A DNA stretch of 64,000 nucleotides from Treponema sp. (GCA_017934745.1 JAGBIY010000030.1:2244-66243); one strand, 5' to 3'; positions 6,220 to 17,521 are shown, numbered from the stretch's first letter. The notes: generated by a model from the letters alone, not told the origin. A program made the numbers and translations.

Positions 6220-7731
6220 TTGCAGAAAATGGAAAATCAGCGGCAATTAAGAAGTATGAGACACAGTACACTACTTCTTCTGCAGCTGATTTTTTTTGCG
6301 GTTATGGAAATTCACCCATCGGAAAGAACCATTCTGAACAGCATCGACTTCGGTTCAAAAATTGGACTCTCGCTCCCGAAAGGGGATTCCAAACAGACGG
6401 ACAAACTGGACGCAGCCGCTGGATTCAAGGTTTCGCTCAAGAACGCGGATTTGAGGCTCTACGAATCGCTATCCACGGAGGTTCCGGCGACGATGCAGGC
6501 TCTATCGGACGGACTCGGCTCCCCGCGGTACGGATTCGGAATCACACTTTTCGGGAAAAGCGTACCGACGACGATAAAGGCCGGAAAGAATTCGCACTCG
6601 AAGTCGCTTTCAAAAATAAAGAACCCCTCCCCCAGCACAGCCGCCACGCCGCTAAGGCAGTCCTTCGCGTTCTCCACGGGGATTCACTCGTCGCTGCCGA
6701 CGCTCTCCTCGGCGGAACAACCGCTTTCGGCAACGCTGAACATCGGGATTCCGAAAAACAGCGTGCTGGACGGGCTTTCGATAGACGCGCTCGTGGACGA
6801 GAAGATGGACACCGCGCTTTCGGCATCAGCGGAGAAGCGGCTCGGAAAACTCTCTTCGATGCATTTCGCGCTCACGGGCGCGAGATTCTTCATAGAAAAC
6901 GGCTCGGCCGTCCTGAAAAAATCAGGAGCCGAATTCCGTCCGGACTACTATCTTTCAGGGCTGGCGGAATTTTCACTCAGGACGCCGATTGTAAAGGCGA
7001 ACGCCCGAATAGGAGCGCAGGAATCGCCATACGATGCAAATCCAGTCTGGCTGAGTCTCGAATGCAGGACAGGCTACAGGAACGTCATATCCGACTTCTC
7101 TTTTTTCGCGGTGCCGACATCGGAACTTACACCGAGGACGGCTCCGCTGATAGGGGCGAACTCATCGATTCAAAGGACGCTGACGCAAATCGGGATAAGC
7201 CCGCAGACCGTTTTCCTTTTCGGAAGCGAATCTCCCGCCGCGGTGAGACTCGGAGCGCACGCCATCGCCGCCAGAAAAATCACGTCGACAAAAAACGCGG
7301 AAATGATGGACGTGGGAAAGATAAGGGTCGCGGAAAGTTTCGAGTCGAAAAGGACGACAGTCAGGCACGACCTAACGGTGGCGAACATCCTGATTTCGGG
7401 GAATCCACCGAACAAGACGAGCACGCCAGAAAAATACGTGACCAACTCCATATCGGTCAGCCGCAAATCGGCCAAGCTGAACATGACGGCCGACATAAGC
7501 CACAAGCACGTGCCCCCGTACAGTTCAAGCCATCCCGCGACAGACACGTTCACATCGACGCTCACGGCCACGCCCGGACTGTCGAAGACGCTTTCGGCGA
7601 GCGGAAAGGTGTCTCTCACGTTCAAGGACGCCCGAAAAAGCGGCGGCGAATTCAGCTTTTCGGCTTCATGCAAATTCAAGTCGAAAAAGGCGAGCGCGTC
7701 ATTGAAATGCGGTGTCGAGATTCCGTTCTAA
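6220..7731 (+). CDS. Hypothetical exported protein, possible beta-barrel
   Basis: 503 aa with hydrophobic N-terminus, alternating-pattern strands and C-terminal Phe; start uncertain. Confidence 0.6.
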   Translation: MQKMENQRQLRSMRHSTLLLLQLIFFAVMEIHPSERTILNSIDFGSKIGLSLPKGDSKQTDKLDAAAGFKVSLKNADLRLYESLSTEVPATMQALSDGLGSPRYGFGITLFGKSVPTTIKAGKNSHSKSLSKIKNPSPSTAATPLRQSFAFSTGIHSSLPTLSSAEQPLSATLNIGIPKNSVLDGLSIDALVDEKMDTALSASAEKRLGKLSSMHFALTGARFFIENGSAVLKKSGAEFRPDYYLSGLAEFSLRTPIVKANARIGAQESPYDANPVWLSLECRTGYRNVISDFSFFAVPTSELTPRTAPLIGANSSIQRTLTQIGISPQTVFLFGSESPAAVRLGAHAIAARKITSTKNAEMMDVGKIRVAESFESKRTTVRHDLTVANILISGNPPNKTSTPEKYVTNSISVSRKSAKLNMTADISHKHVPPYSSSHPATDTFTSTLTATPGLSKTLSASGKVSLTFKDARKSGGEFSFSASCKFKSKKASASLKCGVEIPF

Positions 7732-10025: not shown

Positions 10026-10703
10026 ATGGTAAAACAGGATCTTTATGAAAAAAGCCCAGTTCGTCTTTTTGATGCTGCCACAGACGGCGGACTCAAAGCG
10101 GGTGAGCTCGGACTCGTGACATCTAAGAAAGGTCTTGGAAAGACATCTGTTCTCGTTCAGTTCGGAATGGACACTCTTCTTCAGGACAAGCAGCTTATCC
10201 ACGTAACATTCGACCTCCACTCTTCAAACGTAATCTACTGGTACGACACAATCTTCACAGAGATTTCCAAGAAGAAGAACGTCGGAAACGCGGAAGAGCT
10301 CAAGAGCGAAGTCGTCTCAAAGAGAACAATCTTGAACTTCTCCCTCGACAACTTCACGCTCTCCAAGGTCGTAAACACATTGAACGCCCTCAAGGCCGGC
10401 GGAATCGCGGTCTCTGGCGTCGTGATGGACGGAATCGACTTCTCCAAAGTCACAGAGGGAGACATCAACTCTGTCGCACAGTATGCGGCGGCCGAGAAAG
10501 TCACTGTCTGGGCTTCAGCGACAGCCGAAGGCGACAAGCTCTCTGACTCGGTTCCAGCAGCTTTCGAGAAATATTTCGCGGCTGTAGTCCACTTGAACCA
10601 GAAAGACGGAGTCACTCTCGACGTGTTGAAAATCCACGACAAGAAGGATGTCGCAACCGGCATCAAGCTCGACACAAAAACATCTTTGTTGACAAAGAAC
10701 TAA
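10026..10703 (+). CDS. RecA/KaiC-fold P-loop protein of unknown function
   Basis: GGLKAGELGLVTSKKGLGKT (degenerate Walker A), IHVTFD strand, GVVMDG Walker B-like; GGAG RBS. Confidence 0.7.
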   Translation: MVKQDLYEKSPVRLFDAATDGGLKAGELGLVTSKKGLGKTSVLVQFGMDTLLQDKQLIHVTFDLHSSNVIYWYDTIFTEISKKKNVGNAEELKSEVVSKRTILNFSLDNFTLSKVVNTLNALKAGGIAVSGVVMDGIDFSKVTEGDINSVAQYAAAEKVTVWASATAEGDKLSDSVPAAFEKYFAAVVHLNQKDGVTLDVLKIHDKKDVATGIKLDTKTSLLTKN

Positions 10704-10723
10704 GGTTCTTTCGTAGATGAAAG

Positions 10724-10765
10724 AAGCCGCGCTTGGGGGATTGCCTTTGAGCGCGGCTTTTTTTT
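10724..10765 (+). terminator. Intrinsic terminator
   Basis: AAGCCGCGCT...AGCGCGGCTT stem plus T run. Confidence 0.8.
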
Positions 10766-10813: not shown

Positions 10814-11134
10814 TCAAATCAACTCGCACACTTCCCGTATGTCTTTCAGAATGCGCTCCGAAAGCGCATCCTGTATCGACTTGGAATATTTTTCAGAGAA
10901 TTTCGACTTCAACCCACAGGGATTGTTGTTCTCATCGAACAATGTCGTCAACGGAATGTTCAAAGCCGCAGCTATTTTGTCGATTGTCTCCGCGCTCGGA
11001 AAACGCTCCCTGGCTTCCATGTCGCCTATATATGCAGTGCTCATCCCGATGGCTTCCGCCAGTTTTTCCTGCGTCAAACCTGCCTGCTTTCTGTAAAATT
11101 TCATGTTCTGAATAAAAACGTGCCTAATACCCAT
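10814..11134 (-). CDS. XRE-family HTH transcriptional regulator
   Basis: NMKFYRKQAGLTQEKLAEAIGMSTAYIGDMEARERFPSAETIDKIAAALNI is an HTH_3 pattern. Confidence 0.9.
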   Translation of the reverse strand: MGIRHVFIQNMKFYRKQAGLTQEKLAEAIGMSTAYIGDMEARERFPSAETIDKIAAALNIPLTTLFDENNNPCGLKSKFSEKYSKSIQDALSERILKDIREVCELI

Positions 11135-11183
11135 GAGTCAATTTTCTAGGGATTCCTTTCTAAAATTTATCATCTTAAACACA

Positions 11184-11252
11184 TAAAAATAAATTTAATT
11201 GAATTTTTCTGTGTTTAAGTTATACTTTAACGAAGGTGAAATGAAGCTAAAA
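11184..11252 (+). promoter_or_regulatory. Duplicated sigma70 promoter/leader, copy 1 (copy 2 at 12978..13047)
   Basis: TTGAAT-N16-TATACT followed by TTAACGAAGGTGAAATGAAGCTAAAAA; near-identical to 12978..13047. Confidence 0.75.
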
Positions 11253-11289
11253 ATGAAGACCCTGCTTTCTTTTTGCCAAGGAGTTTTAT

Positions 11290-12150
11290 ATGAAAAAATT
11301 TGGATTGTTTTTCGCACTTTTTTCTTTACTCTCTGTATCAATCGCATGGTCGCAGACCGTGACGCAGGCTACAGTAGACGCAAAACAGGCGGAAGTATCT
11401 AGATTGCAGACAGAATTGCAGAACGCACAGGCCGACGCATATCAGGCTTATGTGCAGAATTCCCCGGATTTGCAACAAAAACAGGCAAAGGTGAACCAGC
11501 TTCAATCAAAGCTCACAAAGGCTCAAGATGAGGCATACAAGGCGATGCAGGCCCTCATGGCTCAGCAACAGGCACAACAGCAGCCACAGCAGCAGCAAGT
11601 AGTAAACAACCAACAGCCTAGTTACAACCAGCAGCAGACACAGCAAAATCAGGGAAGCGGCTCCGATGTCGTCTTCTTTCAGGTGAAGACGCTCCTTGAC
11701 GGGGGATTGTTCAAAAACGAGATGCAAATCGCACAGATGTCGCCGCAACTGAATGCAACCCAAAAGATGATGCTTTTCAACTCATACCAGAAAAGCGCAG
11801 GCGGTCCTTTTGCATTGAACTTTTTCATCGGACTGGGTATCGGTTCGGCCGTTCAGGGAGATTTGGGCGGCTGGGGCTTCCAGTTCGCAACAGAGGGCAT
11901 TGGCTGGATTTTCATTTTGGCAGGAGTCAGCGGAGAGGAAATCAAGCCAGGCGCAATAGGCTTTGGAGCGGTTTTAATGTCGATTGGTCAAATATTCGGC
12001 TGGATCAGGCCTTTTGTATACGCAAACAAATACAACAGGACTCTGCAGAACGCACTCAACGGTGGTTCTCCGATGATGATGTTCTCGTTCGCTCCAGTGG
12101 TCGATCCTGTGAACGAGAAATACGGATTGATGGCGAAACTTCAGATATAG
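11290..12150 (+). CDS. Exported protein with coiled-coil/Gln-rich N-terminus and Borrelia P13-like C-terminal domain
   Basis: Signal peptide; PFALNFFIGLGIGSAVQGD and PFVYANKYNRTLQNALN resemble the P13 porin family as recalled (not searched). Confidence 0.75.
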   Translation: MKKFGLFFALFSLLSVSIAWSQTVTQATVDAKQAEVSRLQTELQNAQADAYQAYVQNSPDLQQKQAKVNQLQSKLTKAQDEAYKAMQALMAQQQAQQQPQQQQVVNNQQPSYNQQQTQQNQGSGSDVVFFQVKTLLDGGLFKNEMQIAQMSPQLNATQKMMLFNSYQKSAGGPFALNFFIGLGIGSAVQGDLGGWGFQFATEGIGWIFILAGVSGEEIKPGAIGFGAVLMSIGQIFGWIRPFVYANKYNRTLQNALNGGSPMMMFSFAPVVDPVNEKYGLMAKLQI

Positions 12151-12166
12151 AAGGCACTAAAAAAAC

Positions 12167-12201
12167 AACTAGGAATCTTCATCTATAGGATTCCTAGTTT
12201 T
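12167..12201 (+). terminator. Intrinsic (probably bidirectional) terminator
   Basis: AACTAGGAATC...GATTCCTAGTT perfect 11-bp stem with flanking A and T runs. Confidence 0.75.
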
Positions 12202-12214
12202 CGCACAAGAACAG

Positions 12215-12238
12215 TGATGCTCCACTAAAAGTGGACAC
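12215..12238 (+). mobile_element. Possible solo IS3-family terminal inverted repeat remnant
   Basis: TGATGCTCCACTAAAAGTGGACAC resembles recalled IS3-type ends (TGAT...AGTGGACAC). No partner end or transposase in the window. Confidence 0.3.
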
Positions 12239-12259
12239 TAACAGGTAAGGAACAAAATC

Positions 12260-12595
12260 ATGAAAAAGAAAATAACAAGCGTAATTCCAATCATTATAGT
12301 TATATTTTGTATTTCGCTTTCGTCCTGCAGTGTTTTTCAAAAGGATTCCACATGGACATTCGAGCATTCCGCCTCAGGAATCGATAGCATCGATGTAACA
12401 ATAAAAAATGGAGGTTCTCCCTCATCGTTCACTCTTTATTATGGTCAAAGTCAGTCAGTAACATGGGAAGGCGAAGGCGAAGATTACTTTGGCGGAGCAG
12501 AATATACAGGACACTGGACGAAATCGTATGTTTCAGGTTTTCATTCAACAAGATACGACAGCCTAAAAGAAATCGTTTTTTACACAGATTTCTAA
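12260..12595 (+). CDS. Small lipoprotein
   Basis: MKKKITSVIPIIIVIFCISLSSC signal with lipobox; AAGGA RBS; AT-rich. Confidence 0.75.
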   Translation: MKKKITSVIPIIIVIFCISLSSCSVFQKDSTWTFEHSASGIDSIDVTIKNGGSPSSFTLYYGQSQSVTWEGEGEDYFGGAEYTGHWTKSYVSGFHSTRYDSLKEIVFYTDF

Positions 12596-12635
12596 ACTTG
12601 TTCGAAAAACGATTAAAATTAAATTTTTAGAAAGC

Positions 12636-12684
12636 AAATAAAAAGACTTGAATATGTTTTATCGCTATTCAAGTCTTTTTATTT
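12636..12684. terminator. Bidirectional terminator (19-bp perfect inverted repeat)
   Basis: AAATAAAAAGACTTGAATA...TATTCAAGTCTTTTTATTT. Confidence 0.75.
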
Positions 12685-12776
12685 GGAAATGAGTTTTTTA
12701 TGCACCAGCTTCACTTTTTCCAGTCTTCAAACAATCTGGATTCCGTGCTATTTTTTCATCGAAAGGAACACAAAAA

Positions 12777-12962
12777 ATGGCAAACGGAAAAGAAGATTTG
12801 GAAGAGAAGAACAAAGACAAAATCGACATGGCGAAGGATTCTTCAAAAATAATCCAATGGGCAAACTTCCAAGGACGGGAGGACTGCGAAATGCTGCAGG
12901 AAAAATCACGCGGCTGGTCGGCAACGAAAAGCAGCCGTGGGGATTATGACGACGAAGACTAA
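12777..12962 (+). CDS. 61-aa microprotein, copy 1
   Basis: AAGGA RBS; paralog at 15292..15477 differs at 12 synonymous and 4 non-synonymous codons. Confidence 0.75.
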   Translation: MANGKEDLEEKNKDKIDMAKDSSKIIQWANFQGREDCEMLQEKSRGWSATKSSRGDYDDED

Positions 12963-12977
12963 AAAATGCGGTGCCGC

Positions 12978-13047
12978 TAAAAATAAATTTCATTGAATCT
13001 CTCTGTGTTTAAGTTATACTTTAACGAAGGTGAAATGAAGCTAAAAA
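12978..13047 (+). promoter_or_regulatory. Duplicated sigma70 promoter/leader, copy 2
   Basis: Direct repeat of 11184..11252. Confidence 0.7.
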
Positions 13048-13088
13048 ACACATCAAATCCCAAATAGTTTCATTTCAAGGAGAAGAAC

Positions 13089-13611
13089 ATGAAAGCATCA
13101 AGAAAACTCTATGCATTGGCAATGGGAGCTTTGTCGATTGCGTTTTTTTGGTTGCCAGACCCAGAAATTCGAATCCACGACAAACGAAATCACAGCTCAG
13201 AAACTTGCGATTAACACATTCATCGACAAAAGCGAGTATGATGTAATCGGAACTGCTGTCGGAACTTCCGAATTCATATTGCCATATGAAACTTCATCAC
13301 AGACATATCCAGGTGACAGTGGCAAGTACGGCTATGTATACGACTCTGAAGAGGCTTTTGTCGGCGACAAGATTTATGTAGGAACAGGAAGAAAGCAAAG
13401 AGCATCAAATCCTTACGAAGCCGGGAACCTTACAATCGCCAGATTGAATGCGCAATACGATTTGATTCAGTCTGCATACGACATGGGAGGAGACACTATC
13501 ATCGAGCCTACATATTCGATTGAAACAAAGGCGGAGGGGTCAGGCTCAAGCAGAAAAGTCCAGTACAAAGTGACGGTCAGGGCTAAAGTAATCCAACTCA
13601 AGATAAAATAA
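13089..13611 (+). pseudogene. Lipoprotein (possible YbjQ/UPF0145-like fold) frameshifted in a T7 tract inside the signal peptide
   Basis: AAGGAG RBS and ATG at 13089 give MKASRKLYALAMGALSIAFF. Removing one T from 13143..13149 joins the downstream frame as ...AFFGCQTQK (lipobox) and continues to the stop at 13611. Confidence 0.75.
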
Positions 13612-13623
13612 ATGGAGCTGCAG

Positions 13624-14328
13624 ATGAAAAAGATTTTTCTTTCGTTTTTGCTCTTTTTGTTGATGATACCGGCTTTTTCACTCGGCTTCGAATTCGATTT
13701 TTTTTCAGGGACAGGATTCACAGCTGGCTTCACGACAGCAAGTGAAGTTTTCAACCGTTCTTGGGGAATTTGGTTTGACTCTCGCGATGTCGAGTACGAA
13801 TACGAATACGAAAGCTACAACGGTTCCTACTATTCAACAAAAAAAGCGACATACTCGGACACAAGAAAGACAGTCGGTCCGTACATGCAGTTCGACTGGT
13901 CCGTGTTGCCGTTCGACATCAATGGAATCGCGAAGGTTGGATTCAACTGGGGATTCAAGGTCGCGGCAGGCTACGTTTCTTCCGAAAACGACATTGTTGA
14001 CGCTCCATTCGACATGATTTGGGCACCGATGATTTCGGCGATGGGACGCTGGAGGGATTTGGACATCACTCTCGGCTGGAAGGGTGCGTTTCACCTTGCC
14101 GACTACATTGCCGGAAACAAAAGGGATGATGACGATGAACTTCAGAAAGGCGGCTGGGTCAACTCATTCCAGATAGGGGTGAAATATGTACTCGGCGGCA
14201 GGCACAGCAGTTCAGACTCAAGTTCCGAAAGTTCAGCGGATTCATCATCGGCAAAATCTGGAAGCCAAGACACCTACAACAGAAGAACATCGATAATAAG
14301 CGGCTCTGGAATGAGACGGGCAAAATAA
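13624..14328 (+). CDS. Putative outer-membrane beta-barrel protein with Ser-rich tail
   Basis: MKKIFLSFLLFLLMIPAFS signal; aromatic-rich alternating strands (LGFEFDFF, SFQIGVKYVLG); GGAG RBS. Confidence 0.65.
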   Translation: MKKIFLSFLLFLLMIPAFSLGFEFDFFSGTGFTAGFTTASEVFNRSWGIWFDSRDVEYEYEYESYNGSYYSTKKATYSDTRKTVGPYMQFDWSVLPFDINGIAKVGFNWGFKVAAGYVSSENDIVDAPFDMIWAPMISAMGRWRDLDITLGWKGAFHLADYIAGNKRDDDDELQKGGWVNSFQIGVKYVLGGRHSSSDSSSESSADSSSAKSGSQDTYNRRTSIISGSGMRRAK

Positions 14329-14332
14329 AAAT

Positions 14333-14392
14333 CCATTTTGAAAAACAAGAAAAACTCCTTATCATGGAATCAGTTTGATAAGGAGTTTTTTC
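14333..14392 (+). repeat. Terminator-forming direct repeat X1 (33 bp identical to 15152..15184)
   Basis: CCATTTTGAAAAACAAGAAAAACTCCTTATCAT, then the complementary arm ATAAGGAGTTTTTT. Confidence 0.85.
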
Positions 14393-14416
14393 AAAGTTTC
14401 CACACTCGACCATTTT

Positions 14417-14445
14417 ACGGATTCATCGAGTGAATCCGTTTTTTT
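14417..14445 (+). terminator. Second intrinsic terminator before the TA promoter
   Basis: ACGGATTCA-TCGAG-TGAATCCGT plus T6. Confidence 0.75.
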
Positions 14446-14448
14446 ATG

Positions 14449-14478
14449 TTGACATATATTCACTTTGATTCATATAGT
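14449..14478 (+). promoter_or_regulatory. Sigma70 promoter of the TA operon (probably leaderless)
   Basis: TTGACA-N18-TATAGT with ATG 5 nt downstream and no SD. Confidence 0.65.
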
Positions 14479-14483
14479 AAACT

Positions 14484-14864
14484 ATGTGGAATGTTGAATC
14501 ATCAGATAAGTTTGATGCTTGGTTTCTGACATTGGACGATGAAAGCAAAGAAGCAATATTGCAGAGAGTACTCTTGCTAAAACAATTTGGTCCAAATCTT
14601 CCACGTCCATATTCAGATGTTCTTCACGGTTCAAAAAAACTTAAAAACCTTAAAGAACTTAGGAATCAGACTCAGCAGCATGTTTTGAGAGTTGCCTATT
14701 ACTTTGATTCCAAAAGAAATGCCTTTCTGCTTACAGGCGGAGACAAGAAAGGAAAAGACCAAGATAAGTTTTACAAGGATTTGATAGCAGAATCAGAAAT
14801 AATTGTAGAAAACCATGAAAAGGAGTTGGAAGATGAAGAATGCAATAAAAATGATGGAAAGTAA
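14484..14864 (+). CDS. Type II TA toxin, RelE/HigB (Gp49-like) family
   Basis: FDAWFLTL...LKQFGPNLPRPYSDVLHGS...LKELR...RVAYYFD..RNAFLLTGGDKKG. Confidence 0.9.
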   Translation: MWNVESSDKFDAWFLTLDDESKEAILQRVLLLKQFGPNLPRPYSDVLHGSKKLKNLKELRNQTQQHVLRVAYYFDSKRNAFLLTGGDKKGKDQDKFYKDLIAESEIIVENHEKELEDEECNKNDGK

Positions 14865-15138
14865 CATGTCACAAGAATCAGTTCGCCGCGCACACATAAA
14901 AGCCGAACAAGATATTATGACAATCCGACTTGCGCAACTCCGTGAAGAGCAGAATGTAAAGCAGTCGGAAATGACTAATTTCTCACAATCATCTGTTTCA
15001 AAAATTGAAAAAAGGACAGATATAAAGATTTCGACATTGATAGACTATCTTGACAGTCTTGGAATGGGATTAGAGATTATCACCTATCCAAAAACGGCAA
15101 ATTCAAAAAAACAAGAAAAGGTTTTGCTGAAAATATAA
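14833..15138 (+). CDS. HigA-like XRE HTH antitoxin
   Basis: LAQLREEQNVKQSEM...SQSSVSKIEKRTDIKISTLIDYLDSLGMGLEI; overlaps the toxin end; GGAG RBS before ATG 14833. Confidence 0.88.
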   Translation: MKNAIKMMESNMSQESVRRAHIKAEQDIMTIRLAQLREEQNVKQSEMTNFSQSSVSKIEKRTDIKISTLIDYLDSLGMGLEIITYPKTANSKKQEKVLLKI

Positions 15139-15151
15139 AACCATACTCCAA

Positions 15152-15219
15152 CCATTTTGAAAAACAAGAAAAACTCCTTATCATTAGACGTGTTCTATCG
15201 ACAAGGAGTTTTTTCATGC
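15152..15219 (+). repeat. Terminator-forming direct repeat X2
   Basis: First 33 bp identical to 14333..14365; last 23 bp (15197..15219) identical to 15505..15527. Confidence 0.85.
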
Positions 15220-15291
15220 CCATGCTCACTTTTTCCAGTCTTCAAACAATCTGGATTCCGTGCTATTTTTTCATCGAAAGGAACACAAAAA

Positions 15292-15477
15292 ATGGCAAAC
15301 GGAAAAGAAGATTTGGAAGAAAAGAACAAGGACAAAATCGACATTTCAAAAGATTCTTCAAAGATAATCCAATGGGCGAGCTTCCAAGGCCGGGAAGACT
15401 GCGAAATGCTGCAGGAAAAATCACGCGGCTGGTCGGCGGTGAAAAGCAGCCGGGGTGACTACGACGACGAAGACTAG
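15292..15477 (+). CDS. 61-aa microprotein, copy 2
   Basis: Paralog of 12777..12962; the upstream 66 bp are identical between copies. Confidence 0.75.
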   Translation: MANGKEDLEEKNKDKIDISKDSSKIIQWASFQGREDCEMLQEKSRGWSAVKSSRGDYDDED

Positions 15478-15504
15478 AAAACACGAAGATGCATAGCAAA
15501 GCCC

Positions 15505-15527
15505 ATCGACAAGGAGTTTTTTCATGC
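15505..15527 (+). repeat. 23-bp repeat X3 containing the uvrB RBS and start codon
   Basis: ATCGACAAGGAGTTTTTTCATGC, identical to 15197..15219. Confidence 0.85.
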
Positions 15528-17521
15528 GCAGATTTCAGGTAGTTTCGCCGTATGAACCGAGCGGCGACCAGGGGCAGGCAATCGACAAGCTTTCCGAGGG
15601 ATTCTTGAGGGGAGACAGGTTCCAGACGCTCAAGGGCGTGACGGGTTCGGGGAAGACGTTCACGATGGCGAAAATCATAGAGAAGGTGCAGCGCCCCACA
15701 CTCATCATATCGCACAACAAGACGCTCTCGGCGCAGCTCTACAGGGAATTCAAGAGCTTCTTCCCGAACAACGCGGTCGAATACTTCGTCTCATACTACG
15801 ACTACTACCAGCCGGAGGCCTACGTCCCGGCGCGAGACCTCTACATCGAAAAGGACGCGGCGACGAACAAGGAAATCGACGCGCTCAGGCTCAAGGCGAC
15901 CTACTCGCTAATGGAAAGGCGGGACGTGATTGTCGTCGCCACGGTATCGTGCATCTACGGACTTGGAATGCCGGACCTCTACAAGGAAATGCGCGTTCAC
16001 ATAGAGAAGGGAGAGCTTTTCGACACGAAGAAATTCGAGCTGCAGATGGCGCAGATTCAATACCAGAGAAACGACATGGTTCTGGAACGCGGGAATTTCC
16101 GTGTGAGGGGGGACGTAATCGAGGTTTTTCCGCCATACATGGAAACGGACACGGCATACAGAATCGAGCTTGACTTCGACGAGATAGCGAAAATCAAAAG
16201 GTTCAACGTCATAACGAGGGAAACGGAGGAGGAACTCGACGAAATGCAGTTCTATCCGGCGAAGCACTTCGTCGTCCCGCAGGAGAAGCTTGTCGAATCC
16301 ACAGAGAAAATCATGGAGGAGATGGAAAGGCAGGTGGAATTCTTCCAGTCGCAGGGGAAAATGCTTGAAGCGGAGAGGATAAAGACCAGGACGACGCTGG
16401 ACGTGGAGATGATGAAGGAGATGGGCTACTGTTCAGGAATCGAGAACTACTCAGGCCCGATTTCAGGACGCAAAAGAGGAGAGCCTCCTGCCACACTGCT
16501 CCACTATTTTCCCGACGACTTTCTCTGCATGATTGACGAGGCGCACGTCTCGGTGCCGCAAATCGGAGCGATGTACGAGGGCGACAGGAGCCGCAAGCAG
16601 AACCTTGTGGACTTCGGATTCAGGCTTCCGAGCGCGCTCGACAACAGGCCGCTCAAAGCCGAGGAATTCTGGAAGAAAATCAACCAGGTCATCTATGTGA
16701 CGGCGACACCGCGCGAGCAGGAAATCAAGCAGTCCACGCAGGTCGTCGAGCAGATAATCCGCCCGACGGGACTTTTGGACCCGATAATCGACGTGAGGCC
16801 GAGCGAAGGGCAGATGCAGGACATCTACCGGGAAGTCAAGGAGCGAATCGACAAAAAAGAGAGGAGCCTGATTCTGACGCTGACGAAAAAGATGGCGGAG
16901 GATTTGACGGAATATCTTCTCGGTCTGAACCTGAAAGTCCGCTACATCCACTCGGAAATCGACACGTTCGAGCGTGTTGAAATTCTCAAGAGCCTCAGGA
17001 CAGGTGAAATAGACGTTCTCATCGGAATCAACCTTCTGAGGGAGGGAATCGACCTTCCGGAAGTGAGCTTCATCGCGATTCTGGACGCGGACAAAATCGG
17101 ATTCCTGCGCTCGACGACGAGCCTTATTCAGATAATCGGGCGCGCGGCAAGGAACGAGAACGGCAAGGTCGTCATGTACGCCGACGTGATGTCGCCAGCC
17201 ATAAAGGAGGCGGTCGCCGAGACAAAAAGAAGGCGCGAAATCCAGCAGAAATACAACGAGGAGCACGGAATCACGCCCCACACGGTGTCGAAGGCCGTAC
17301 AGGACATACTCGAACGCCAGCAGAAGGACGCGGACGAGAATGCGGAAGTGGAGCTTTCCGTCCTCAAAAAACCCGCGAACCTTTTCGACGCGAAACAGCG
17401 CAGAAAACTCATCGAGGCCCTCAAAAAGGAGATGGGCGAATGCGCCGACCGGCTTGAGTACGAGCAGGCGGCGGCGATACGCGACCAGATAAACGAAATC
17501 GTGGCGACCTACGGGAAGTAA
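15524..17521 (+). CDS. uvrB: Excinuclease ABC subunit B
   Basis: GVTGSGKT, YYDYYQPEAY, MIDEAH, ATP, QIIRPTG, QIIGRAARN and C-terminal UVR domain. Confidence 0.98.
   Translation: MRRFQVVSPYEPSGDQGQAIDKLSEGFLRGDRFQTLKGVTGSGKTFTMAKIIEKVQRPTLIISHNKTLSAQLYREFKSFFPNNAVEYFVSYYDYYQPEAYVPARDLYIEKDAATNKEIDALRLKATYSLMERRDVIVVATVSCIYGLGMPDLYKEMRVHIEKGELFDTKKFELQMAQIQYQRNDMVLERGNFRVRGDVIEVFPPYMETDTAYRIELDFDEIAKIKRFNVITRETEEELDEMQFYPAKHFVVPQEKLVESTEKIMEEMERQVEFFQSQGKMLEAERIKTRTTLDVEMMKEMGYCSGIENYSGPISGRKRGEPPATLLHYFPDDFLCMIDEAHVSVPQIGAMYEGDRSRKQNLVDFGFRLPSALDNRPLKAEEFWKKINQVIYVTATPREQEIKQSTQVVEQIIRPTGLLDPIIDVRPSEGQMQDIYREVKERIDKKERSLILTLTKKMAEDLTEYLLGLNLKVRYIHSEIDTFERVEILKSLRTGEIDVLIGINLLREGIDLPEVSFIAILDADKIGFLRSTTSLIQIIGRAARNENGKVVMYADVMSPAIKEAVAETKRRREIQQKYNEEHGITPHTVSKAVQDILERQQKDADENAEVELSVLKKPANLFDAKQRRKLIEALKKEMGECADRLEYEQAAAIRDQINEIVATYGK

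Follow-up and report, generated by a model that had tools for sequence, protein, structure and literature searches.

The window, as we call the stretch of 64,000 nucleotides of Treponema DNA that was analysed here, comes from a 3.58-Mb draft genome of a rumen Treponema in 73 contigs, whose nearest named relatives are T. saccharophilum, T. zioleckii, and T. ruminis. At 10.8-15.5 kb of the window, between a KaiC-like gene and uvrB, lies an islet of low GC content that encodes a regulator, several envelope-directed proteins, a toxin-antitoxin pair, and two copies of a microprotein, and in which three sequence families, here named A, B, and X, are duplicated. An original prediction, made from the sequence alone, had read this interval as a cassette-like array built from reused parts and as a hotspot shaped by recombination. 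The gene order that it gave agrees with our listing of open reading frames (ORFs) and with the family scans, and the three duplicated families were recovered both in a repeat search and in a BLAST search of the whole genome. The GC fraction is 0.34-0.46 in most of the islet and 0.38-0.50 through the genes for a P13-like protein and a putative outer-membrane protein (OMP), compared with about 0.55 in the flanks and 0.50 in the genome, which gives the islet a foreign-looking composition.

On the left, the conserved KaiC-like gene (10026..10703, plus strand; a weak match to the KaiC ATPase) is followed by a terminator hairpin (10720..10763, plus strand, -32.3 kcal/mol, z -5.7) that forms the left edge of the islet, and on the right the islet ends at the conserved uvrB gene (15524..17521, plus strand). 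These two genes bound every variant of the locus, with a flank identity of 92-100%. Two sister species have an empty site, in which the distance from the KaiC-like gene to uvrB is 128 nucleotides (locus L014, whose flanks are 95% identical to those of the window at the amino acid level) or 390 nucleotides (T. saccharophilum, L015). The empty site of L014 carries a hairpin equivalent to the KaiC-like terminator. The pair formed by fusA and the KaiC-like gene is kept in 37 Treponema loci, and the position 3' of the KaiC-like gene is a genus-wide synteny breakpoint; the genes that follow the pair differ in almost every Treponema species (L014-L047).

The first islet gene encodes an XRE-family regulator with a helix-turn-helix (HTH) domain (10814..11134, minus strand; PF01381, E 2.3e-15) and diverges from promoter A1; it is present in all arrays except the microprotein-only and empty forms. 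An inverted repeat with arms of 10 bp, CTTAAACACA...TGTGTTTAAG (11174..11219), lies across the -35 region of A1 and is a candidate XRE operator. Copy A2 has only the right half of this repeat (12978-13013), so the displaced unit behind it, with the genes for lipoprotein 2 (Lip2) and the OMP, may have lost XRE control. Downstream of A1, the P13-like gene (11290..12150, plus strand) encodes a membrane protein that has a signal peptide and whose N-terminal region is Q-rich and coiled. The protein matches Pfam PF05628 (E 8.8e-11, 42.4 bits, cut-off 25), scores 56.5 bits against the NCBIfam P13_porin equivalog (cut-off 100), and, compared with the Borrelia P13 family, has an extra Q-rich N-terminal region of about 150 amino acids. 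Its gene occurs sporadically within the genus, in 10 of 61 genomes. After a hairpin (12167..12199, plus strand, -15.5 kcal/mol, z -4.8) comes lipoprotein 1 (Lip1; 12260..12595, plus strand; 111 amino acids, lipobox LSSC), for which Pfam, NCBIfam, and PHROGs gave no family match; in the related loci L050 and L056, a different lipoprotein of 120 amino acids (lipobox LFFSC) stands in its place. The hairpin after Lip1 (12635..12685, plus strand, -24.3 kcal/mol) has a perfect 20-bp stem.

Downstream of B1 and A2, the gene for Lip2 (13089..13611, plus strand) carries a +1 frameshift at a run of seven T residues (T7, 13143-13149). The next gene (13624..14328, plus strand) encodes the OMP, a small exported protein of 234 amino acids with a signal peptide and a Ser-rich tail. 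Its AlphaFold (AF2) model is all-beta at low confidence (predicted local distance difference test score, pLDDT, 57), and its best PDB matches are mostly outer-membrane barrels (OmpA, OmpX, PagL, and TtoA), with template-modelling (TM) scores of 0.3-0.4; judged from this model, the OMP is probably a small outer-membrane barrel. A search for OMP homologues found them only in the species cluster of the window; one on contig L071 is discussed below. A second hairpin with a T7 tail (14417..14439, plus strand) precedes the promoter of a HigBA-type toxin-antitoxin module (14449..15138, plus strand; predicted promoter TTGACA-18-TATAGT). The genes for the toxin (14484-14864; PF05973, E 1.4e-16, 60.7 bits, cut-off 23.9; phrog_3445, 'toxin') and the antitoxin (14833-15138; HTH_3, 26.3 bits, cut-off 23) overlap by 32 nucleotides, and a Gp49-family toxin of the predicted RelE/ParE fold followed by an overlapping HTH antitoxin corresponds to the HigBA architecture. 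Type II HigBA modules in chromosomal islands appear to share with this one the toxin-first order, the overlapping HTH antitoxin, a strong promoter of their own, and a location in variable DNA. Together with the loop and right arm of X1 and the second X-left sequence, the module forms a segment of 819 nucleotides (~14366-15184) that is absent from the E2 and E6 strain groups, and arrays without HigBA occur in many independent assemblies.

Nearly every module had been predicted to end in a strong hairpin. This was found for the P13-like gene, Lip1, the OMP gene, and HigBA, which, like the KaiC-like gene, are followed by hairpins of -12 to -32 kcal/mol (z -3.2 to -5.7), but a hairpin scan of the islet detected no strong hairpin after either microprotein gene. 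Transcription of microprotein 1 should therefore continue into A2-Lip2-OMP, and that of microprotein 2 into uvrB, with which it would be co-transcribed. The absence of attC-like sites, also predicted, was confirmed: the boundary hairpins are unrelated to one another apart from those of X1 and X2, and an Rfam scan of the islet gave sub-threshold chance matches and no significant one.

Repeat A is 70 nucleotides long, and its two copies, A1 (11184..11253, plus strand) and A2 (12978..13047, plus strand), are 96% identical; A1 consists of a promoter-like TTGAAT-16-TATACT and the start of a 5' untranslated region (UTR). Repeat B comprises a leader and a microprotein gene. B1 (12688..12966, plus strand; microprotein 1 at 12777-12962) has a promoter-like TTCAAA-17-TATTTT recognized by eye and is followed by no terminator, and B2 (15223..15481, plus strand; microprotein 2 at 15292-15477) leads into uvrB with no hairpin between. 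Together, leader and microprotein gene form a repeat of 279 nucleotides (12688-12966 and 15203-15481) that is 90% identical. The 66-nucleotide leaders show no difference, although the ORFs beside them differ by 10%, for which 0.9^66 gives ~0.001; this suggests conversion between the B copies. X1 (14333..14393, plus strand, -20.8 kcal/mol), the terminator of Lip2-OMP, combines the 33-nucleotide X-left with a loop and with a right arm that is a copy of the ribosome-binding site (RBS) of uvrB. X2 (15152..15222, plus strand) consists of a second X-left, a loop, and c3, a copy of the uvrB RBS and start (ATCGACAAGGAGTTTTTTCATGC). The X-left copies (14333-14365 and 15152-15184) are identical at 33 of 33 positions. 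The genuine uvrB RBS and start codon, c4, are at 15505..15530 (plus strand), and the string of c3 is accordingly found at 15197 and at 15505; a near-copy lies at 14376. The ATG of c3 also opens an overlapping ORF, which was rejected as coding, since its frame differs between B1 and B2.

The original prediction had placed the site before uvrB in the X series as a third member, X3. This site is no terminator but the native RBS of uvrB, which is likewise present at the empty site of L014. There, uvrB is preceded by CGATAAGGAGTTTTTTCATGCGCAG, which identifies the right arms of X1 and X2 as copies of the native uvrB RBS. In L073-L077 and in L050, X-left, loop, and RBS directly abut uvrB, and the X2 element does so in the E6 strain group. 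X-left also contains a promoter-like TTGAAA-16-TATCAT (14338-14365 and 15157-15184; 10 of 12 positions) with a predicted start in the hairpin loop, so X could end upstream transcripts and start uvrB-directed ones. X thus looks like a combined OMP terminator and uvrB promoter with 5' UTR, and this assignment, like those of promoters to A, B, X-left, and the toxin-antitoxin module, is predicted from sequence.

The repeats are confined to this locus. In the BLAST search of the whole genome, A, B, and X matched each other only, with E-values of 1e-5 to 1e-99 that are too low for chance, and no further copies were found elsewhere in the genome; the cargo genes have no paralogues in the genome either, except for the ordinary XRE family. 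The cores of A and X-left were also searched as exact patterns in 185,579 species genomes and in metagenomes of the Joint Genome Institute (JGI), and they matched this locus only; the genome matches came from one close relative and the metagenome matches from three JGI contigs. A, B, and X are therefore not parts of a dispersed or genome-wide cassette system. This bears on the possibility that the islet works as a cassette platform, integron-like or otherwise site-specific, on which a recombinase encoded elsewhere would use A, X, or the uvrB-RBS copies (c) as attachment sites. Its modules are indeed short, mostly self-contained, and mostly hairpin-ended, direct repeats bracket them, and a Campbell-type crossover at X-left would give exactly the layout X1-HigBA-X2. 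However, no core is common to the four bracketing repeats, neither A nor X-left was found at a further locus in the genome or the public collections searched, the hairpin sequences of the different modules are unrelated, the right arm of X is simply the uvrB RBS, and no integrase is encoded on the contig. All five genes for tyrosine recombinases (PF00589) sit on other contigs; the original prediction had noted no integrase, and a PF00589 search found none on the contig of the islet (C40). A platform of this kind is thus very unlikely. Compared with an integron array, the islet has in common the one-directional, short, mostly promoterless or self-contained modules beside a fixed point and the coexistence of newer and older modules, but it has no IntI, attI, or attC, and its bracketing repeats are mutually unrelated and unique to the locus. 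No IntI gene is adjacent, and the hairpins after the P13-like gene, Lip1, the OMP gene, and HigBA are unrelated except for X1 and X2. The lack of a common repeat core and of a tyrosine recombinase on the contig led us to reject membership in the integrons. The picture of a cassette array is not supported by these results.

Within the species cluster of the window (flanks 92-100% identical), seven occupied arrangements were found. The simplest has only B with its microprotein, between the KaiC-like terminator and uvrB (L062). In L073-L077, XRE is followed by A-Lip2-OMP-X and uvrB, and in L013, L055, L060, L061, and L079, B with its microprotein stands between this unit and uvrB. A fourth arrangement consists of the Lip1 terminator, B with its microprotein, and uvrB (L067), and we counted with it an end piece (L059) in which the flank of the 120-amino-acid lipoprotein gene is followed by B with microprotein 1 and uvrB. 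In L050, the order is XRE, A-P13 with the 120-amino-acid lipoprotein, B with microprotein 1, A-Lip2-OMP-X, and uvrB. The window form, the longest seen, occurs in L053, L069, and 21 similar contigs. In the seventh arrangement (L070:3382-3845, GCA_900089725.1), a deletion in the window form joins nucleotide 127 of the microprotein 1 gene to nucleotide 375 of the OMP gene and thereby takes out A2, Lip2, and half of the OMP gene. The genes downstream of uvrB also differ in L070, in which the genes for Vut_1, QueC, and QueF are absent.

For most differences between arrangements, the endpoint falls at A, at X, at the uvrB-RBS copy, or at B. A single A in some strains corresponds to A1 and A2, 1794 nucleotides apart, in others, and the lone A copy of the E2 and E6 strain groups aligns to both. 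Likewise, a single X-left corresponds to X1 and X2, 819 nucleotides apart with HigBA inside; a single c to c3 and c4, 308 nucleotides apart with B and its microprotein inside; and a single B to B1 and B2, 2515 nucleotides apart. In L050 and L073-L077, the missing B2 corresponds exactly to the stretch between the c copies. Strains that are less than 3% apart in the 5' end of uvrB show at least five arrangements, and the trees of the left flank and of the right flank each put several arrangements among closely related strains. The claim of a recombination-shaped hotspot is thus borne out by an empty site in two sister species, seven occupied arrangements, and breaks that fall mostly at repeats. 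The original prediction had proposed two comparisons, and they gave different answers: the interval varies among relatives, so the hotspot stands, and the search for further copies of A, B, and X found them nowhere else. It had also foreseen a loss of about 2.5 kb by recombination between the B copies; a form with a single B does exist (L067), but by its nucleotide sequence it belongs to another lineage and does not demonstrate excision in this strain. HigBA, which lies within this segment, could select against the loss, as the original prediction suggested.

We considered whether these arrangements could be produced by assembly, with alternative alleles of co-occurring strains chimerically joined at shared repeats. 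The genome is a draft of 73 contigs, and several of the compared contigs end at or beside A or B (L054, L056, and L057). The joint between microprotein 1 and A2, with A2-specific bases, and the layout X1-HigBA-X2 nevertheless turn up again in over 20 assemblies, which come from different samples and sources, and the 90%-identical B copies were not collapsed. The joint itself, of which two versions occur, is present in at least eight independent assemblies. Given this recurrence of the junctions in many assemblies, an artefact is extremely improbable and was rejected.

The microprotein has 61 amino acids and is acidic (MANGxEDLxEKN...FQGREDAEMLQEK...YDDED). Its family is genus-wide, with members 45-71% identical in 10 of 25 genus genomes; the protein matches no family in Pfam, NCBIfam, or PHROGs, and it has no name in a set of 5.8 billion proteins. 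The structure model is helical, at low confidence. The two copies differ at 19 nucleotides; of the codon changes that result, 13 are synonymous and 4 non-synonymous. In other strains, type 1 is found alone directly 5' of uvrB (L054, L055, and L059), and so is type 2 (L013 and L060-L068), which indicates two allelic lineages and not cassette leaders with their cargo. The proposal that B serves as a cassette leader is therefore not tenable; B and the microprotein appear instead to be the promoter-proximal part of the uvrB transcription unit. No conserved motif was found upstream of the microprotein genes in other species. The microprotein gene is directly upstream of a MutT/NUDIX gene in L006 and adjoins one in L007, follows a Y-family polymerase gene and a YolD-like gene in L004, and precedes a LigT-like gene in L003; a run of ATGAATT heptamer repeats comes after it in L012 (1696-1780). 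A link of the microprotein to DNA damage is possible from these neighbourhoods.

A further reading takes this link up and proposes that the 5' control region of uvrB (X-left promoter, 5' UTR, and RBS, ~60 nucleotides) is a reusable docking sequence that each incoming module duplicates, and that the microprotein is a DNA-damage-linked partner. We regard this as quite unlikely. If it were true, the islet would be a cassette stacker that needs no integrase and gives every module a hybrid of terminator and promoter, and the resident first gene would be the microprotein, found near a uvrB, mutT, or Y-family polymerase gene in several relatives and a previously unknown partner.

The cargo raises the question of a phage origin. 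The XRE regulator and the toxin match phage families (PHROGs), and on a rumen metagenome contig (L071:1-6678), homologues of Lip2 and the OMP (82% and 67% amino acid identity) follow directly after Mu-like genes for terminase, portal, and F. Beside these homologues, L071 also has DUF4406 and DUF2786 genes, and 3' of the OMP homologue (6900-7250) it carries two short tandem-like repeat families with units containing GGACGAGCGAAGCAATGTCC and AATTCCACATTCCTAATTGCTAATTGTAAAAACTCCCGAA. L071 hints that the Lip2-OMP pair can travel as phage cargo, and a phage origin of some islet cargo is possible. One could go further and regard the islet as the decayed end of a prophage or a moron cluster, in which an eroded phage delivered XRE, the Gp49-type toxin-antitoxin pair, and Lip2-OMP, and in which the strain differences are stages of decay; the low GC content would also be in keeping with this. 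However, no structural, integrase, or transposase gene is present in any variant, no mobility gene was found in Pfam, NCBIfam, and PHROGs scans of all islet ORFs, and a search of 50,697 GenBank phage records gave no match to Lip2 or the OMP. The units also come and go independently and stack, so that decay could explain the source of the cargo but not the rearrangements bounded by repeats, and we consider it unlikely as an explanation of the locus. Phage morons are likewise small units of promoter, gene or genes, and terminator for envelope proteins, with the Lip2-OMP pair of L071 lying by Mu-like genes, but none of the strains examined has a phage backbone at this locus.

The frameshift that had been noted in Lip2 is genuine. 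The run is T6, and the gene in frame (173 amino acids, lipobox FFGC), in eight relatives (L013, L050, L051, L052, L055, L058, L060, and L061), whereas the window, L053, and L069 have T7 and a frameshifted gene. Across 5.8 kb, only three positions separate L051 from the window, one of them the additional T of this run, and such a split among nearly identical contigs indicates that the frameshift is real and recent. Together with the identical leaders and the envelope-targeted cargo, the presence of T6 and T7 in such close contigs would fit a programmed switch of surface variation within a clone, based on phase variation of the Lip2 T run and on frequent, reversible recombination at A, B, and X. 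However, a run of 6-7 nucleotides is on the short side for slippage to be efficient, a deletion between direct repeats is irreversible, and there are no invertible segments or silent cassettes. A programmed switch is accordingly very unlikely.

The explanation that we favour, and hold to be likely, is that the islet is a strain-variable hotspot similar to a minimal mobile element, remodelled by homologous and short-homology recombination in the absence of a dedicated recombinase, and that it contains stacked alleles. The conserved flanks would let small modules of whole genes be swapped, lost, or stacked by general recombination. Arrays with a single unit are known for both kinds, and the window accordingly resembles two alternative alleles in tandem plus an insertion of HigBA. 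Unit 1 would be A, the P13-like gene, Lip1, B, and microprotein type 1, and unit 2, immediately after it, would be A, Lip2, the OMP gene, X, B, and microprotein type 2. The HigBA module would have been inserted into the control region of uvrB, with X1-HigBA-X2 as the expected product of a single crossover in X-left. For the tandem, we suggest that one end was anchored by homology in XRE-A or B-uvrB and that the other end was joined illegitimately. The reused parts would then be leftovers of this joining, namely copies of the promoter of the locus (A), of the promoter, 5' UTR, and RBS of uvrB (X and c), and of the microprotein gene (B), and once duplicated they could serve in deletion and gene conversion and so give the arrangements of the other strains. 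We observed the repeats, the empty site, the alternative arrangements with their breakpoints, and no recombinase nearby; for the order of events, and for homology-facilitated illegitimate recombination as the stacking step, we infer the course from these observations.

Several points weigh against this explanation. No microhomology is evident exactly at the joint between microprotein 1 and A2, and each pair of a two-copy and a one-copy form can be read as an insertion or as a deletion. The origin of the left uvrB-RBS copy (c3) comes from modelling only, and functional constraint, instead of conversion, could explain the perfect identity of the X-left copies and of the B leaders. Evidence for natural competence is limited to homologues of ComEC and DprA in the genome, which are not diagnostic. 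Finally, most of the comparison sequences are metagenome contigs, and the arrangements of L062, L067, and L070 rest on one record each.

Two known kinds of system resemble the hotspot as we propose it. Minimal mobile elements were defined in Neisseria (Saunders and Snyder 2002), and in the definition that PMC3082526 quotes, a slot between two conserved genes holds strain-specific cassettes of whole genes, there are no mobility genes of their own, and exchange is ascribed to homologous recombination in the flanks. Three of the four features in the quoted definition are present in the islet (conserved flanks, variable cassettes, and no mobility genes), the fourth being uptake and homologous incorporation; compared with the elements as quoted, the islet differs in that it also stacks cassettes in tandem, with duplicated control sequences inside. 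Stacking is known from the orphan immunity arrays of Vibrio cholerae's type VI secretion system (T6SS) and from the Rhs and contact-dependent inhibition (CDI) arrays, where it is ascribed to homology-facilitated illegitimate recombination (PMC5361080). These orphan arrays, like the islet, have successive modules at one site, a reused conserved anchor, and a mosaic structure with no integrase, and the older modules are pushed along and kept. However, they carry effector-immunity pairs, whereas the islet carries surface proteins and a toxin-antitoxin pair, and their anchor is a conserved coding 5' end, whereas the anchors of the islet are a promoter and the 5' region of uvrB.

Our findings draw attention to a conserved, uncharacterized microprotein that appears to be co-transcribed with uvrB. 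They also suggest that the duplication of promoters, terminators, and RBS copies can be a scar of allele stacking and not a sign of a cassette system. The series of empty, single-unit, stacked, and decayed forms provides a natural material that could be used to measure recombination and stabilization by toxin-antitoxin modules in Treponema. If the favoured explanation is correct, a gut spirochaete would vary its envelope proteins between strains at one chromosomal slot by general recombination alone.

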